NCBI GenBank assembly: GCA_964361595.1
Contig: CAYIAX010000003.1
Span: 6,071-70,070, forward strand
Reading direction: 5' to 3'
Origin: an uncultured Candidatus Saccharibacteria bacterium
Lineage (GTDB): Bacteria > Patescibacteriota > Minisyncoccia > UBA6257 > 2-01-FULL-56-20
DNA: 64,000 bases
In this document: in pieces, positions 10,784-60,990 of the stretch
Numbering within the stretch: the first letter of the stretch is position 1
How the letters are laid out: every line of letters begins with the position of its first letter
Made by a program: the position numbers and the translations under genes
Notes under the pieces: generated by a model
Told to the model about the DNA's origin: nothing
What the model saw: the letters and a program-made list of their open reading frames with translations, nothing else
Databases searched by the model: none

Positions 10784-11776
10784 ATGTTAAATCCCGAGGC
10801 AAAACTGAATCCGAAAATTTTTGATGAAGACGTGGAGCAGCGGCCGACACGAGCCGGTTACGGCGAGGGGATCGTCGAGGCCGGCGAGGCGAATCAGAAT
10901 GTGGTCGCGCTTTGCGCTGACCTTACCGAATCCACGCAGACGATGGCTTTCGCGAAAAAGTTCCCCGAACGATTCTTTGAGTGCGGTGTGGCCGAGCAAA
11001 ACATGGCCACGATTGCCGCCGGCTTGGGCGTGAGCGGGAAAATCCCGTTTATCGCTTCCTATGCGACCTTTTCGCCGGGACGGAATTTGGAGCAGATCCG
11101 CACCACGATTGCTTATAACGATGCGAACGTCAAGATCGCCGGCCACCATGCGGGAATTTCGGTGGGTCCGGACGGAGCCACACATCAGGCGACGGAGGAC
11201 ATCGCGATCATGCGGTCCCTGCCGAATATGCGGGTGCTCGCGCCCTGTGACGCAATCGAAGCGAAGAAAGCAACGGTAGCCGCCGCCCAAATTTGGGGTC
11301 CGGTCTATTTGCGGTTCGCGCGCGAAAAATCACCCGTGCTGACAACCCGAGAAACTCCTTTTGTGCCAGGCAAAATTCAAGTTTTTTGGGAATCGCCCAA
11401 ACCAAGCGTGCTTATCCTTGGCTGCGGCGCGCTGCTTTATCAGTCGCTTTTGGCCGCGCGGGAACTGGAAAAAGAAAAGATTCAAGTGTTAGTTGTTAAC
11501 TGCCACACGGTTAAGCCTTTGGATGAAGAAAATATCATTAAATTGGCCGAGAAAGCCGGTGCGGTTGTGACGGTGGAAGAACACCAAATAATGGGCGGCT
11601 TGGGCGGTGCGGTTGCGGAGCTCTTAGCTCAAAAATCACCCATGCCCATGGAATTTGTTGGCTTAAAGGACGTATTTGGGGAATCGGGTCCGCCGGAGGA
11701 GTTGCTCAAAAAATACGGGATGAGCGTAAAAGAAATTATGGCGGCGGCGAAGCGGGCTAAACGGCGCGCAGGTTAA
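10784..11776 (+). CDS. tkt: transketolase, C-terminal (pyrimidine-binding) subunit
   Basis: FFECGVAEQNMATIAAGL...ATFSPGRNLEQIR...GPDGATHQATEDIAIMRSLPNM is the Pyr/C-terminal transketolase domain. Confidence 0.85.
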   Translation: MLNPEAKLNPKIFDEDVEQRPTRAGYGEGIVEAGEANQNVVALCADLTESTQTMAFAKKFPERFFECGVAEQNMATIAAGLGVSGKIPFIASYATFSPGRNLEQIRTTIAYNDANVKIAGHHAGISVGPDGATHQATEDIAIMRSLPNMRVLAPCDAIEAKKATVAAAQIWGPVYLRFAREKSPVLTTRETPFVPGKIQVFWESPKPSVLILGCGALLYQSLLAARELEKEKIQVLVVNCHTVKPLDEENIIKLAEKAGAVVTVEEHQIMGGLGGAVAELLAQKSPMPMEFVGLKDVFGESGPPEELLKKYGMSVKEIMAAAKRAKRRAG

Positions 11777-11786
11777 GCCTGCCCGT

Positions 11787-13379
11787 ATGAACTCGCGATA
11801 CGCGATCTTAATTTTTCTCACGGTAGTTTTTATTTTTTCTTTCAATCAATTCAAGGAAGCTGACAGCTTTTATCATCTGAAGACTGGACAGGCGATTTGG
11901 GAAGCAAAAGCGATTCCCCAAACCGATATTTTTTCCTTTACGGCCGTCGGCCGGCCCTGGGTTACGCATGAGTGGCTGGCGGAAGTGATATTTTATTTGC
12001 TCGCAAAAATAAGTTTATGGGCAGTGATCTTTTTTATTGCCGGTTTGTCCGTCGCAACTTATTTCTTGCTGTGGCTGCGTTCACGTTTACTAGGAGCTTC
12101 TGCGGAGTGGACGGTGCTCGCGCTCCTCGTCTTCGGTCTTTTAACCTTCGAGCTTTGGATACCTCGTCCGCAGGTATTCTCATTTTTCTTGGCGGCGCTT
12201 CTGCTTCTGCTTTTGGATTCTTACCGTAAAACCGGCAGAGCGAAATATATAACCGGTTTACCGATCTTGATCTTGCTTTGGGCAAATATGCATGCCAGTT
12301 TTCTTTTAGGCTTGATCATAATCCTTTTTTATGCGGGCTATGAGCAAGCTACAAAAAAACCGGTTCGTTTGCTCTGGCTTACTTTTGGCAGTAGCTTATT
12401 TTTATCTTTTTTAAACCCGAACGGTTTTCGGATTTATACATATGCGTGGGACATCTTGCCGGCTGTAAATGCGCTTTCGATTTTGGAGTGGAAGTCGATC
12501 GTCTACTTTTGGAGCAAGCCCCAAGTGAAAGTTTTTCTGGTTATGATCTTTATGACTTGGGGCGGGCTCGTTTATCTGCGGCGATCCAAAATCAAAGAGC
12601 ACGCACTCCCAATACTTTTAATTAGTGTTGCCGCCATTTTGCCGCTCGTCGCGATTAGGCATGTGGGCTTTTGGCCGGTTATTGCTGCGCCGCTTGCCGC
12701 TGCGGCGCTTACCGAATCCACGAAGTTGCGGGAATTCGCCGCCGGTAAAAATTTTCGGATCGGTTTAATCATTTTTTCCGTTTTCTTGATTACTGTGCGT
12801 TTAACCCAGATCGACTCAAGGCCTATTAACAAGCTCGCGCTGCCGGTTCAAGCGGCTGATTTTGCGGCGAAAGCAGGGATTAAAGGGCCGCTCTTTAATT
12901 TTTACAATGATGGAGGATATCTCATTTGGCGGTTATGGCCTGGCGAAAAAGTTTTCATTGATGGCCGCTCCGAAGTTTACGACGAAGAGACAGTCAATGA
13001 TTACAAAGCCATAACTGAAGTTAAGGACGATTGGCAGGCTTTACTCGAAGAAAAGTATGGGATTGACTTTGTGATTTTTTCATATCGCAATGTTTTAAAT
13101 TATGAGGCCAGCAAACGCTTTGCCGAAGGCCTGCTCGTGGAGAATTTCGCGCTCATTTATTGGGATGATACAGCCCTGATTTTCGTAAGCGATACGCAAA
13201 CCAACCGCAGTTTGATCGATAAATATGCCTTGAGCCATGTGGAGCCGTTCCGCGATCCCGAAGGCATACCCCTAAGCGAGAAAAAAGACGCTTTGCGGGA
13301 ACTGCAAATTCTCTTGGATCGGCAGCCGGAATCGCAAGTCATACGGAAATATACAGAGCTTCTGCTTAAAAATCAGTAA
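11787..13379 (+). CDS. large polytopic membrane protein, possible GT-C-like glycosyltransferase (uncertain)
   Basis: About 12 predicted TM helices followed by a soluble C-terminal domain. No firm motif found. Confidence 0.5.
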   Translation: MNSRYAILIFLTVVFIFSFNQFKEADSFYHLKTGQAIWEAKAIPQTDIFSFTAVGRPWVTHEWLAEVIFYLLAKISLWAVIFFIAGLSVATYFLLWLRSRLLGASAEWTVLALLVFGLLTFELWIPRPQVFSFFLAALLLLLLDSYRKTGRAKYITGLPILILLWANMHASFLLGLIIILFYAGYEQATKKPVRLLWLTFGSSLFLSFLNPNGFRIYTYAWDILPAVNALSILEWKSIVYFWSKPQVKVFLVMIFMTWGGLVYLRRSKIKEHALPILLISVAAILPLVAIRHVGFWPVIAAPLAAAALTESTKLREFAAGKNFRIGLIIFSVFLITVRLTQIDSRPINKLALPVQAADFAAKAGIKGPLFNFYNDGGYLIWRLWPGEKVFIDGRSEVYDEETVNDYKAITEVKDDWQALLEEKYGIDFVIFSYRNVLNYEASKRFAEGLLVENFALIYWDDTALIFVSDTQTNRSLIDKYALSHVEPFRDPEGIPLSEKKDALRELQILLDRQPESQVIRKYTELLLKNQ

Positions 13380-34273: not shown

Positions 34274-34307
34274 CAACATTCTAACATTCTGCAGAATGTT
34301 AGAATGT
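34274..34307. repeat. perfect 34 bp palindrome AACATTCTAACATTCT-GC-AGAATGTTAGAATGTT (ACATTCT-heptamer palindrome family, copy 1)
   Basis: Read directly; the reverse complement is identical. Confidence 0.9.
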
Positions 34308-34318
34308 TGTAATCCAGA

Positions 34319-34354
34319 ATTTACGTACGGAATTACGTAATTCCGTACGTAAAT
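34319..34354. repeat. perfect 36 bp palindrome ATTTACGTACGGAATTACGTAATTCCGTACGTAAAT
   Basis: Read directly; reverse complement identical. Lies 12 bp from copy 1 of the ACATTCT palindrome. Confidence 0.9.
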
Positions 34355-38326: not shown

Positions 38327-38334
38327 AACCATAC

Positions 38335-38366
38335 CCTTAAAAACTTGAGAACTTGAGATTTTAAGG
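38335..38366. repeat. 32 bp inverted-repeat arm (left) CCTTAAAAACTTGAGAACTTGAGATTTTAAGG
   Basis: Exact reverse complement of 38679-38710. Contains an internal tandem ACTTGAGA x2 flanked by CCTTAAAA/TTTTAAGG. Confidence 0.9.
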
Positions 38367-38387
38367 ATATGGTGCGATAATAAAATC

Positions 38388-38672
38388 ATGGGGAAAATAA
38401 AAACTGCGAGGCAAATGGAACGCCACTTAAAGGGGATGGCCAACCACCACCGCATCAACATTTTACTGCTTATCGCTCAAAGGGACGGAATAACTTTTGA
38501 GGAAATTGCGAGAACCCTAGAGGCAAATGAAAAGACAATTGGTGAACATGCAAGGCGGTTGCATCAAGCGGGGCTGGTTAATAAATCATATCAAGGCAAA
38601 TTTGTGGAATATACACTATCTCCATACGGCAAAATATTCGTCCGTTTTCTTAAATCTTTCCAAAGCATTTAA
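38388..38672 (+). CDS. ArsR-family winged-helix transcriptional regulator
   Basis: HHRINILLLIAQRDGITFEEIARTLEANEKTIGEHARRLHQAGLV is an ArsR/SmtB-type HTH. The gene is bracketed by a perfect 32 bp inverted repeat. Confidence 0.6.
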   Translation: MGKIKTARQMERHLKGMANHHRINILLLIAQRDGITFEEIARTLEANEKTIGEHARRLHQAGLVNKSYQGKFVEYTLSPYGKIFVRFLKSFQSI

Positions 38673-38678
38673 CAACAT

Positions 38679-38710
38679 CCTTAAAATCTCAAGTTCTCAA
38701 GTTTTTAAGG
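38679..38710. repeat. 32 bp inverted-repeat arm (right) CCTTAAAATCTCAAGTTCTCAAGTTTTTAAGG
   Basis: Exact reverse complement of 38335-38366. Confidence 0.9.
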
Positions 38711-38797
38711 GTGTCATTTGGTAATCTGGAGTAATCTGGGCTAAGGTAAGCTGAATATTGGAAAGGATGGTAACTTTGATATATCATAGAGCATCAA

Positions 38798-38870
38798 GGG
38801 CCCGTAGTTCAGCCCCGACGTTGCAAGTCGGGGAGGCCGCGATTGGCTTGGCAGGCCTCATTTGTCCCGA
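38798..38870 (+). pseudogene. tRNA-Ala 5' fragment (degenerate)
   Basis: Starts GGGCCCGTAGTTCAG like the intact tRNA-Ala at 38924, then loses the cloverleaf. Confidence 0.4.
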
Positions 38871-38923
38871 CGCACTTTTAAATAACCTATGATAAAGAAG
38901 TCGGGATCCCGTATGACTTTGGT

Positions 38924-38995
38924 GGGCCCGTAGTTTAGTGGTAAAACGCCTCATTTGCAATGAGGAGAGCGGCGGTTCGATCCCGCCCGGGTCCA
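38924..38995 (+). tRNA. tRNA-Ala (anticodon TGC)
   Basis: Acceptor GGGCCCG/CGGGTCC with G3:U70, D-arm GTTT-AGTGGTA-AAAC, anticodon stem CCTCA/TGAGG, loop TTTGCAA, T-arm GGCGG-TTCGATC-CCGCC, discriminator A. Confidence 0.8.
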
Positions 38996-39029
38996 CACGA
39001 GCCCACCAAAGTCCAGCGGGACAATGTGG

Positions 39030-39160
39030 AGTGGGCGGCCGCCCGGGTCCACGCGTGCTTCGAGCGCACAGGTAGGAAGGTTGGCAGAGTGGACGAATGC
39101 GCCGCACTTGTTCCCGATTTCTATGAATCTTTGATTCGTCGAGAAATCGCAATCCCGCAC
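39030..39160 (+). pseudogene. tRNA fragment cluster (tRNA-Ala 3' piece and tRNA-Ser 5' piece)
   Basis: Contains CGGCCGCCCGGGTCCACGCG (Ala T-arm/acceptor-like) and GGTTGGCAGAGTGGACGAATGCGCCGCACTTG (Ser 5'-half-like). Confidence 0.4.
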
Positions 39161-39165
39161 AAAGC

Positions 39166-39252
39166 GGTGGGGTGGCCGAGTGGTTGAAAGCGCCGCACTT
39201 GAAATGCGGTATACCCGGAAGGGTATCGTGAGTTCGAATCTCACCCCCACCG
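39166..39252 (+). tRNA. tRNA-Ser (anticodon TGA)
   Basis: Acceptor GGTGGGG/CCCCACC, anticodon stem CCGCA/TGCGG, loop CTTGAAA, long variable arm, T-arm GTGAG-TTCGAAT-CTCAC, discriminator G. Confidence 0.8.
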
Positions 39253-39254
39253 CT

Positions 39255-39440
39255 TTGGGCGCGGGAAATGCGGTAAGCCAGAAATGGCTTCGGAGGTTCG
39301 AATCCTCCACCTTCCGCCTAGGGATTAATACCCTTATGGGCCGCACTCGCCCGCCGAAGGCAGGGTCCCTGCCTACCGGCAGGCAGGCGCCCCAGGCGGA
39401 AAATGCGGTTGGGGAGAAATCCCCGTCAGATGCTTTGTAA
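39255..39440 (+). pseudogene. tRNA-Ser-like 3' fragments
   Basis: GAAATGCGGTAAGCCAGAAATGGCTTCGGAGGTTCGAATCCTCCACC is an anticodon-stem/variable arm/T-arm without a 5' half. A second piece, GAAAATGCGGTTGGGGAGAAATCCCC, nearly matches the variable arm of the tRNA-Ser at 36044-36133. Confidence 0.4.
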
Positions 39441-40316: not shown

Positions 40317-40352
40317 CAACATTCTCACATTCTCAAGAATGTGAGAATGTTG
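40317..40352. repeat. ACATTCT-heptamer palindrome family, copy 2 (CAACATTCTCACATTCT-CA-AGAATGTGAGAATGTTG)
   Basis: Read directly: arms are perfect complements around a 2 nt centre. Followed by the hairpin AAATGCGCCA-CCCGGC-TGGCGCATTT. Confidence 0.85.
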
Positions 40353-40413
40353 CGAATGCGCCACCCGGCTGGCGCATTTATAAATAGTGAAAACATGCTA
40401 TTGTTATTTCTAA

Positions 40414-47522: not shown

Positions 47523-47556
47523 GACATTCTCACATTCTGCAGAATGTGAGAATGTC
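47523..47556. repeat. ACATTCT-heptamer palindrome family, copy 3 (GACATTCTCACATTCT-GC-AGAATGTGAGAATGTC), perfect
   Basis: Read directly. Followed by the inverted repeat AAATGCGCCACCC...GGGTGGCGCATTT (47558-47607). Confidence 0.9.
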
Positions 47557-47674
47557 ATAAATGCGCCACCCGGGTGTCCCATTCGTAGCCTTGCGCGAAG
47601 TATGGGTGGCGCATTTAGTTGATGTTTGAACCCAGCAAGTGGGAGATTTACTTCGTGTTTTGCGAACCGCGCAA

Positions 47675-47714
47675 AACAACATTCTAACATTCTATAGAAT
47701 GTTAGAATGTTGTT
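47675..47714. repeat. ACATTCT-heptamer palindrome family, copy 4 (40 bp perfect palindrome AACAACATTCTAACATTCT-AT-AGAATGTTAGAATGTTGTT)
   Basis: Read directly. Preceded by the hairpin GTTTTGCG-AACC-GCGCAAAAC. Confidence 0.9.
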
Positions 47715-47725
47715 TGATCTGAATT

Positions 47726-48280
47726 TTAATTTATCTGCGCGCTTGCGGCTGTCGTCGCTTGGCGGCGCGCGAGGAGCATCGTTACAAACAAAAGCGCGAA
47801 AGCCGTAAATGCCATCATTGGGATCGTGATGTAGCCGAAGAGCAAGACGAATCTTTGCGAACAGGCCGCCGAGTAGCCCACGGCCGCGCAGGGCAGGGCG
47901 GGAGCGACGCCCAGCTGAAGCAAATAATGATAGCCGGCAATTACACCGCCCACGCCGGACATGACCAGGCTGTAGCCGATGATATTTTTATCTTTCTTCG
48001 CGAGCGCGAGGCCCAAAAGCAGCGCCTGCGGGTACATGAAGATGCGCTGGAACCAGCAAAGCTTGCAAGGCTCATAGCCCGCGATTTCGGAATAGAAAAG
48101 ACTGCCCAAAGTTGCGAGAAGGGCGACGAGGAAGGCGAACAGCACGGCCTTGTTTAAAAAATAATCCAGCTTCGGCGAACGGTTTTTTGTGAGGAGAATA
48201 AAAATTGCAATTAAGGTGAGCGCTCCGCCCAAAATCGTAAGCGGCCCCAAAATATTATTAACTAAAGGAACGAGTGACAT
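47726..48280 (-). CDS. DsbB/BdbC-like disulfide bond formation protein
   Basis: Four TM helices. CKLCWFQRI resembles the BdbC CxxC motif, with a second Cys pair in a later loop. Start moved to the internal ATG to remove overlap with the adjacent gene. Confidence 0.6.
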   Translation of the reverse strand: MSLVPLVNNILGPLTILGGALTLIAIFILLTKNRSPKLDYFLNKAVLFAFLVALLATLGSLFYSEIAGYEPCKLCWFQRIFMYPQALLLGLALAKKDKNIIGYSLVMSGVGGVIAGYHYLLQLGVAPALPCAAVGYSAACSQRFVLLFGYITIPMMAFTAFALLFVTMLLARRQATTAASAQIN

Positions 48281-48281
48281 A

Positions 48282-48662
48282 TTATTGCGTCGCCGGAAGT
48301 TCGCAGCCGGTTTTCTCGGCCAGGGTTTCAAGTGCGACTTCACCGCTCAAGCGGCTCCCGTCCTTAAATTCCCAGGTGGGATAGCCCTCGATACCTTTTT
48401 TTGTGCAGAAGGGAAGCTGGGCTTGGCCGTTCGGCGTGGAGCATTCCACATAATTCAATAACTTTTGCGAGCGGCCGAACATGGCTTTCTGGTTTTGGCA
48501 GTGCGGACACCAAAAGGCGCCATAGAAAATTGCGCCGCGATCCTTAAGACAAGTGGCAAAGGCGTCGAGCTTATCAGGCTTATTCGCCTCACTGCGCCAG
48601 ACGAAGAATAAAGCGACGACTGCGATAGTAACTACTCCGTAAATAGCCCACTTTTTAGACAT
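48282..48662 (-). CDS. thioredoxin-fold thiol:disulfide oxidoreductase (DsbA/BdbA-like), membrane-anchored
   Basis: N-terminal TM and a CxxC active site FWCPHCQ. Sits immediately upstream of the DsbB-like gene. Confidence 0.7.
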   Translation of the reverse strand: MSKKWAIYGVVTIAVVALFFVWRSEANKPDKLDAFATCLKDRGAIFYGAFWCPHCQNQKAMFGRSQKLLNYVECSTPNGQAQLPFCTKKGIEGYPTWEFKDGSRLSGEVALETLAEKTGCELPATQ

Positions 48663-48755: not shown

Positions 48756-48799
48756 AGTTACTAAAATTATACTACAATTGTAGTATAATTTTAGTAACT
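48756..48799. repeat. perfect 44 bp palindrome AGTTACTAAAATTATACTACAATTGTAGTATAATTTTAGTAACT
   Basis: Read directly; reverse complement identical. Contains TATAAT on both strands and lies in the divergent intergenic region between the thioredoxin-like gene (-) and the 49051 gene (+). Confidence 0.9.
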
Positions 48800-48818: not shown

Positions 48819-48856
48819 ACAACATTCCAACATTCTGCAGAATGTTGGAATGTTGT
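48819..48856. repeat. ACATTCT-heptamer palindrome family, copy 5 (38 bp perfect: ACAACATTCCAACATTCT-GC-AGAATGTTGGAATGTTGT)
   Basis: Read directly. Confidence 0.9.
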
Positions 48857-48882
48857 TTTGCGACAGGTGCAGGCGAGCGACG

Positions 48883-48914
48883 ACATTCTAATATTCTATA
48901 GAATGTGAGAATGT
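48883..48914. repeat. ACATTCT-heptamer palindrome family, copy 6 (imperfect: ACATTCTAATATTCT-AT-AGAATGTGAGAATGT)
   Basis: Read directly; two mismatches between the arms. Confidence 0.8.
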
Positions 48915-49050
48915 TGTTTATATGAAAAAGCCGCTTGTGGCGGAGCGCGCAGTTAAGATGGATTAGTCAATTAAAATGGAGTTGAAATTTTGGCCGAAAT
49001 GAGCAATAATGCAGGCGTAATGCGGGTAGCAATTATTTGTTTGAAAATTT

Positions 49051-60875: not shown

Positions 60876-60990
60876 AACGCAGCAAATAGAACGGAGAGGG
60901 CATCGCAAAAATGATAAAGTTAAGAGCCATATGGCTCTTAACTTTATCATTACCAATAATGTGGGCCTCTCGCGTATCAGCCTTCTGCTT

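Follow-up and report, generated by a model that had tools for sequence, protein, structure and literature searches.

An ArsR-like regulator gene of Patescibacteria bracketed by two conserved palindromes, its probable operators

Results

An ArsR-like gene lies between two identical palindromes

Between uppS and a downstream tRNA cluster, the window (the whole 64-kb stretch of DNA analysed here) encodes a small ArsR-like protein whose gene has a palindrome on either side. The features of this locus are as follows.

38333..38368, + strand: upstream palindrome (left arm), type-1 operator-like, derived, with one extra 8-bp unit (ACTTGAGA twice)
38353..38358, + strand: -35-like hexamer TTGAGA, within the left arm, in the second ACTTGAGA copy
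38376..38381, + strand: -10 hexamer GATAAT, ending 6 nt before the ATG
38388..38672, + strand: gene for a 94-aa ArsR/SmtB-fold winged-helix protein (paralog 1; PF01022 and fold model)
38677..38712, - strand: downstream palindrome (right arm), exact reverse complement of the left arm

The preliminary description had reported a perfect 32-bp inverted repeat around a 94-aa ArsR-family open reading frame, with spacers of 21 and 6 bp in a unit of 376 bp and with each arm forming a stem-loop, and all of this was borne out. The sequence CCTTAAAAACTTGAGAACTTGAGATTTTAAGG at 38335-38366 (+) recurs as its exact reverse complement at 38679-38710, and the perfect identity even extends to 36 bp (38333-38368 and 38677-38712), with 90% identity over 48 nt. 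The left arm is separated by 21 nt from the ATG at 38388, and the 32-bp right arm by 6 nt from the stop at 38672 (its 36-bp core begins 4 nt past the stop codon), giving 376 bp for the whole bracketed unit. Each arm is a hairpin with the stem CCTTAAAA/TTTTAAGG, and flanking bases, not the same in the two arms, bring each stem to 15-18 bp; on the left, the extended hairpin (38328-38373) begins 2 nt past the uppS stop codon. Both arms fold far better than shuffled sequences on both strands, with energies of -12.7 to -18.3 kcal/mol (z -4.1 to -7.2).

Matches to the arm with up to three mismatches were found neither elsewhere in the 64-kb window nor in 100 dinucleotide shuffles. A target-site duplication was sought in the two flanks of the unit (...AAAACCAT before the first arm and GTCATTTG after the second), and no direct repeat was present. 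Rfam searches at the gathering threshold returned tRNAs only, and relaxing the threshold to E<1 added one chance miRNA-hairpin match on the left arm. The sequence and orientation of the locus are identical in three independent replicate groundwater assemblies (L001-L003); therefore, the arrangement is not an assembly artefact.

The region beyond the right arm has features of its own. The tandem repeat GTAATCTGGA GTAATCTGGG occupies 38721-38740, just past the arm and upstream of a promoter-like site (38758-38787) that precedes a tRNA-like sequence at 38798. From 38798 to 39330, duplicated tRNA pieces surround complete tRNA genes: a tRNA-Ala-like 5′ half, broken in the anticodon loop (38798-38864), precedes a complete tRNA-Ala(tgc) (38924-38996), and these are followed by a tRNA-Ala 3′-end-like copy (39039-39058), a tRNA-Ser 5′ half (39065-39110), a complete tRNA-Ser(tga) (39166-39253) and a tRNA-Ser 3′ half (39265-39316). 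Long stems of leader and trailer sequence enclose both complete genes (38907-38931 with 38997-39021 for tRNA-Ala; 39156-39172 with 39245-39261 for tRNA-Ser). Reading the nested halves as intron-containing tRNA was rejected, as ARAGORN with introns of up to 400 nt found none.

The encoded protein belongs to the ArsR/SmtB fold family

The 94-aa sequence matches the Pfam family HTH_5/ArsR (PF01022) at 31.3 bits against a cut-off of 22, scores 43.7 against NCBIfam NF033788, which is under the subfamily cut-off of 55, and has PDB profile matches to HlyU (E 4.6e-5) and CadC. The AF2 model (pLDDT 78.8) contains helices at residues 7-17, 20-31, 37-44, 48-60 and 79-92 plus a hairpin, and its predicted topology is alpha1-alpha2-alpha3-alphaR-beta hairpin-alpha5, that of the ArsR/SmtB fold. 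The top Foldseek matches of the model are HlyU, SqrR and CadC, with TM scores of 0.64-0.71. A search of the sequence for a metal or metalloid site found no cysteine anywhere and no histidine in alpha5. Because non-metal members of the ArsR/SmtB family are also devoid of alpha3 Cys or alpha5 Asp/His sites, the missing site does not bar membership of the fold family, and the protein is an ArsR/SmtB fold family member without a recognisable sensing site. This family typically autorepresses via inverted repeats over its own promoter.

Database searches recovered 1780 relatives, the best 120 of which share 75-82% identity with the protein and span Sungbacteria, Uhrbacteria, Liptonbacteria, Nomurabacteria, Doudnabacteria and other Patescibacteria. 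With each species represented by one genome, a scan detected relatives in 268 genomes. No published description of this regulator or of the palindrome was found in the full-text literature searched, the coverage of which is incomplete.

The upstream palindrome is part of a predicted leaderless promoter

The promoter scan of the window scored 10 of 12 matches at this gene, reading TTGAGA, a 17-nt spacer, TGcGATAAT, 6 nt and ATG. In most orthologs, TTGAGA coincides with the dyad centre of the palindrome, and a position matrix of 77 loci places TATAAT at -12 to -7 from the start codon; a motif resembling a Shine-Dalgarno sequence was found in only 1 of the 77. Since the -10 hexamer ends 6 nt before the ATG, transcription is predicted to start at or next to the start codon, a geometry that implies a leaderless regulator mRNA.

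Two palindromes flank the gene across Patescibacteria

For the comparison, 80 loci were fetched from the 268-genome scan, further loci were added by exact-protein look-up, and palindromes were called at 23 or more of 34 matches (the shuffled maximum was 20). A palindrome of about 34 bp with the consensus AACATCCTTACAAACTTGAGAATGTAAGGATGTT lies upstream of the gene in all 78 of 78 distinct Patescibacteria ortholog loci, and in 74 of the 78 a second copy adjoins the stop codon or overlaps with it. In 42 of 78 loci the upstream 34-mer reaches to 15 nt before the ATG, and in 63 to 13-18 nt before it. The first position of the downstream 34-mer falls at -2 to +1 relative to the stop-codon end in 55 of 74. 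From centre to centre, the two copies are 335 bp apart in 25 of 71 loci and 333-338 bp apart in 46 (344 bp in the window). The tail of this distribution reaches 394 bp without helical periodicity, and phase-dependent looping is therefore not supported.

The gene neighbours of the regulator vary between genomes, which indicates that the palindromes travel with the regulator gene and not with a neighbour. The position of the upstream copy is set relative to the -10 box and the ATG, not to any upstream gene, and this copy is also found between divergent genes (14 loci). About half of the loci have a co-directional gene that starts within 60 nt past the downstream copy. The asymmetric centres of the two copies are direct (A+/A+) in 36 of 74 loci and inverted in about five, the window included. 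On these counts, the conserved feature is a pair of palindromes, not an inverted repeat around the gene, and the inverted orientation seen in the window is a minority state.

Positions A4, C7, A10 and A12 and their mirrors are invariant, and conservation runs through the whole element, loop included, a pattern that fits protein recognition better than a mere hairpin. The stems show some compensatory change, from C-G to A-T and from T-A to C-G. On the + strand, G.U and A.C pairs number 59 vs 32 in downstream copies and 43 vs 58 in upstream copies, and as a test for RNA structure this strand comparison is not decisive.

The palindromes consist of 8-bp units and evolve in concert

The consensus element is composed of four 8-bp units (ACATCCTT, ACAAACTT, GAGAATGT and AAGGATGT), and the window arms of five (ATACCCTT, AAAAACTT, GAGAACTT, GAGATTTT and AAGGATAT). 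Both window arms carry a tandem duplication of ACTTGAGA as well as the changes ACA>AAA and TGT>TTT. One unit fewer (-8 bp) is present in the upstream copy of L012 and the downstream copy of L052, and the number of units per element is 3, 4 or 5. Because two independent identical duplications are unlikely, the two window sites must have exchanged sequence.

Upstream and downstream copies match at 28.0 of 34 positions within a genome vs 26.5 between genomes, a value reached in 0 of 2000 permutations, and the two copies are perfectly identical in three loci. Within a genome, all four half-sites vary together (z 2.3-4.9), symmetry within an element is slightly stronger than similarity between elements, and dispersed copies share genome-specific variants. 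These comparisons show that the palindrome copies evolve in concert to a measurable degree. Gene conversion between the sites is the probable source of three features of the window arms, namely their 36-bp identity, the 8-bp duplication common to both and their inverted orientation, none of which points to transposition.

Palindrome type follows regulator clade

Paralog 2 is widespread, 64% identical, and carries a different recognition helix, CNxKTISEHTRKL; in 6 of 6 independent loci, ACATTCT-type palindromes lie both upstream of it and at its stop codon. At one locus (L015), paralogs 1 and 2 lie 1.6 kb apart, each with its own palindrome type. A third, distant ArsR-like paralog (about 35% identity; L051, about 11520-11900) is bracketed by a palindrome of its own, ACTATTCTCTTATTCGCACGAATAAGAGAATAGT, and TATAAT again lies 6 nt before its ATG. 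No correlation between recognition-helix or wing residues and half-site variants was seen within paralog 1; a correlation of residue to site appears only between paralog clades. Because palindrome type sorts by protein clade, a generic punctuation hairpin is disfavoured.

ACATTCT-type (type-2) palindromes, none assigned to a strand, also occur in the window.

34275..34308: type-2 palindrome, nhmmer E 5e-4 with an HMM of ArsR-flanking elements
40318..40351: type-2 palindrome with centre CTCAAG, nhmmer E 4e-5, 63 nt upstream of an alanine racemase gene
47523..47556: type-2 palindrome, 4 nt past the stop codon of a 100-aa ORF
47674..47715: type-2 palindrome, perfect (21+21), just past the stop of a 205-aa membrane-protein ORF (47726-48343, minus strand)
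48819..48856: type-2 palindrome, nhmmer E 9e-4
48880..48917: type-2 palindrome

An earlier suggestion that these palindromes and the arms belong to one regulatory logic held in part. The two groups have the same octamer layout, and the HMM built from ArsR-flanking elements detects the ACATTCT sites; as to their regulator, we presume them to be sites of a paralogous protein, most likely one that is not encoded in the window.

Other inverted repeats were noted in the same regions. The GC-rich hairpin AATGCGCCACCCGG...GGCGCATT adjoins ACATTCT palindromes at window positions 40352-40380 and 47557-47620, and almost the same hairpin stands ahead of type-1 palindromes at metagenome locus L191; possibly, it is another conserved element that accompanies the palindromes. 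A perfect 34-bp palindrome, TTTACGTACGGAATTACGTAATTCCGTACGTAAA, lies at 34320-34353, 11 nt past the ACATTCT palindrome at 34275-34308. Perfect palindromes of 22+22 nt at 48756-48799 (AGTTACTAAAATTATACTACAA/TTGTAGTATAATTTTAGTAACT, with TATAAT on both strands) and of 21+21 nt at 60910-60951 are unrelated in sequence to the type-1 and type-2 families.

Dispersed copies form a low-copy site family

A search of 1.24 Mb of fetched sequence with an HMM built from 149 flanking elements yielded about 50 additional copies that do not adjoin the regulator gene; the window's ACATTCT palindromes were among the sites it detected. Up to 2 kb from the gene, copies occur at about 1 per 10 kb, and at distances of 4-10 kb at 0.12-0.2 per 10 kb. 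Of 134 exact-consensus matches in metagenome contigs, 42 are next to an arsR-like gene, 20 are at the ends of contigs and 72 are in other places; viral contigs gave one match to the consensus core, on a contig of 40,750 bp. Scanning metagenomes for the 23-nt core of the window arm, AAAACTTGAGAACTTGAGATTTT, gave 0 matches and did not return even the window's own L001-L003, which carry the 23-mer; the contig collection evidently holds only part of the Hainich assemblies. The type-1 palindromes are a low-copy site family and not a high-copy REP.

Dispersed copies are mostly intergenic. Some precede start codons and share the -10 geometry, many directly follow stop codons, also between convergent genes, and a few are inside ORFs; canonical GC-rich terminators often directly adjoin them. 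The genes beside them are of mixed function, among them MnmA (three times), PolA, MgsA, RadC, Obg, an MGMT-like protein and ribosomal protein L9, and no function common to these genes was found. In four genomes, a type-1 palindrome lies in-frame within TspO, at the same position of the TM2-TM3 loop, where it encodes QHPYILENVRML.

L008, 3049-3082: palindrome within TspO
L004, 4090-4123: palindrome within TspO
L060, 9792-9825: palindrome within TspO
L065, 2259-2292: palindrome within TspO

TspO is often encoded directly 3′ of the regulator gene. The loop exists in homologues as well, without the palindrome appearing as a clean insertion, and only 6 residues are extra.

Discussion

We consider it probable that the two arms are cognate operators of the encoded ArsR-fold protein and that the gene regulates itself as a self-contained unit. 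One reading in the preliminary description, a regulator between two operators of its own, fits the comparative data, in which the sites are conserved and palindrome type pairs with protein clade. What was observed is the architecture, the promoter geometry, this pairing, the dispersed copies and the concerted evolution; binding by the protein, repression and the action of the second site, by looping or as a roadblock, are what we infer. In the proposed mechanism, the upstream palindrome has the -35 hexamer at its dyad centre and fills the promoter spacer with its right half, and bound protein would occlude RNA polymerase at the leaderless promoter. The second palindrome, at the stop codon about 335 bp away (344 bp here), would most likely act with the first, either through protein-bridged DNA looping or as a roadblock and 3′-end hairpin insulating the unit. 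The gene that follows may, in many genomes, have this second palindrome as its operator. Other low-copy members of the palindrome family, at sites elsewhere, would constitute a regulon, and the ACATTCT palindromes of the window would be the equivalent sites of a paralogous regulator.

Several features sit poorly with a simple dimer-operator model. ArsR-family sites have arrangements such as 12-2-12, and by comparison the half-site centres here, about 21 bp apart, are more widely spaced. A rigid dimer on both outer half-sites should not tolerate centres that are longer by 8 bp (window) or shorter by 8 bp (L012 and L052). Copies between convergent genes count against operators, because no promoter is expected there, and the mild G.U excess of the downstream copies does not fit the model either. 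The compensatory stem changes and the stronger symmetry within elements are both what nucleic-acid structure would predict too. Also counting against the model are the dispersed copies inside ORFs, the aperiodic tail of the spacing between the two sites, and the recognition helices of paralog 1, whose residues are uncorrelated with half-site variants.

It is nevertheless unlikely that the palindromes are nucleic-acid hairpins (terminators, insulators or stabilisers of mRNA 3′ ends) and the regulator merely a short insulated transcription unit. The arms do fold stably, at -12.7 to -18.3 kcal/mol, and UUUUAUU follows the left arm on the minus strand, but a terminator scan called neither arm, the stems are AT-rich, and the + strand tails, GCGAUAAU and CAUUUGG, have no U-tract. 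Position can be read in both ways: the left arm begins 2 nt past the uppS stop and the right arm 4-6 nt past the arsR stop, and dispersed copies often directly follow stop codons or lie between convergent genes, yet the upstream copy is locked to the -10 box and ATG, occurs between divergent genes in 14 loci, and GC-rich canonical terminators often sit right beside the dispersed copies. Partial stem covariation, the + strand G.U excess of the downstream copies and the tolerance of changes of 8 bp either way in the "loop" are features of hairpins, whereas the upstream copies have no G.U bias (43 vs 58) and loop as well as stem sequence is kept across phylum-level lineages. Three paralog clades each have their own palindrome type, which generic punctuation leaves unexplained. 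Simple terminator hairpins are disfavoured by the missing terminator call, the AT-rich stems, the absence of a + strand U-tract and the promoter-locked position.

A dual use of the palindromes is doubtful to a similar degree. The small winged-helix proteins would then read them both as DNA operators and as RNA 3′-end hairpins or roadblock terminators, and each paralog with its palindrome type would be a self-insulating and self-limiting module that also punctuates transcription units in the streamlined genomes of Patescibacteria. If true, 8-bp units would be gained and lost site by site in a family-wide regulatory grammar without a described counterpart.

Less probable still is a selfish system of the REP/REPtron or MITE kind, in which the palindromes are mobile or amplifiable repeats and the gene is a domesticated cognate binding protein or cargo. 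The gene is bracketed by the dispersed palindromes of its own genome as RAYT genes are by REPs, but it encodes a 94-aa winged helix with no catalytic domain. Copies are homogenised within a genome, yet they are few (a background of about 0.15 per 10 kb); each locus has a single copy of the gene, and the arm is not repeated elsewhere in the 64 kb. Gene context varies while the protein stays 75-82% identical, as a mobile unit would allow; against this stand the fixed promoter geometry of the palindrome and the lack of a target-site duplication. The palindrome lying in-frame within TspO in four genomes recalls an insertion, but the loop is present in homologues without a clean insertion. The MITE-like cassette of the preliminary description does not fit the data: the window has terminal inverted repeats but neither a target-site duplication nor another copy of the arm, and in relatives the cores are mostly direct and each element is itself palindromic.

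That the 36-bp perfect inverted repeats are recombination sites flipping the regulator gene is highly improbable: they do flank a 308-bp segment, and their shared 8-bp duplication implies exchange between the arms, but three independent assemblies show one orientation, inversion between identical arms would recreate the same promoter and provide no switch, no recombinase was found among the neighbours scanned, and the asymmetric cores of relatives are mostly direct (36 A+/A+ vs about 5 inverted).

Taken as operators of an autoregulated ArsR-fold protein, the two palindromes have partial counterparts in known systems. The ArsR/SmtB autorepressors (SmtB, CadC, CzrA, HlyU and SqrR) are alike in fold, in size and in having an inverted repeat over their own promoter. 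Unlike them, the present protein has no cysteine and no alpha-5 His/Asp metal site, and its palindrome spans 32-40 bp in four 8-bp units in place of a 12-2-12 arrangement; a second copy at the stop codon, a predicted leaderless mRNA and dispersed copies are further differences. CIRCE/HrcA likewise combines a spaced inverted repeat kept across distant lineages with a conserved winged-helix repressor that carries the repeat in its own operon, and CIRCE acts at two levels, on DNA as an operator and on the mRNA as an element of the transcript. The two systems differ, however, in protein family and in sequence, the target genes here are heterogeneous, and CIRCE lies between promoter and start codon without bracketing the regulator gene, as the palindromes do here. 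Lambda CI, with OL and OR, is a repressor whose gene lies between its own operators, and by analogy cooperative looping is plausible here; the bracketed distance is 0.34 kb compared with about 2.4 kb in lambda, each side has just one palindrome, the locus is chromosomal without any phage context, and the two proteins belong to unrelated families.

Resemblance to REP/RAYT systems (REPtrons) lies in dispersed intergenic palindromes of 30-40 bp that are homogenised within a genome, two of which flank the associated gene. Here, by contrast, the flanked protein is a winged helix and not an HUH/Y1 transposase, copies number tens per genome at most and not hundreds, and the palindrome forms part of a promoter. 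The operators of MetJ, a ribbon-helix-helix protein, are tandem 8-bp metboxes that can vary in number, and the 8-bp units described here (3, 4 or 5 per element) may be analogous.

To our knowledge, Patescibacteria/CPR genomes encode very few transcription factors, and gene regulation in these organisms is almost undescribed. The regulator reported here is among the most conserved of this radiation, with 75-82% identity (best 120 relatives) across lineages at the level of candidate phyla and relatives in at least 268 species genomes. A bracket of two operators around a leaderless gene would be an unusual and very compact autoregulatory design. Together, the predicted operator and promoter, at least two paralog-specific site families and the candidate targets would provide a testable first regulon in an uncultivated radiation.
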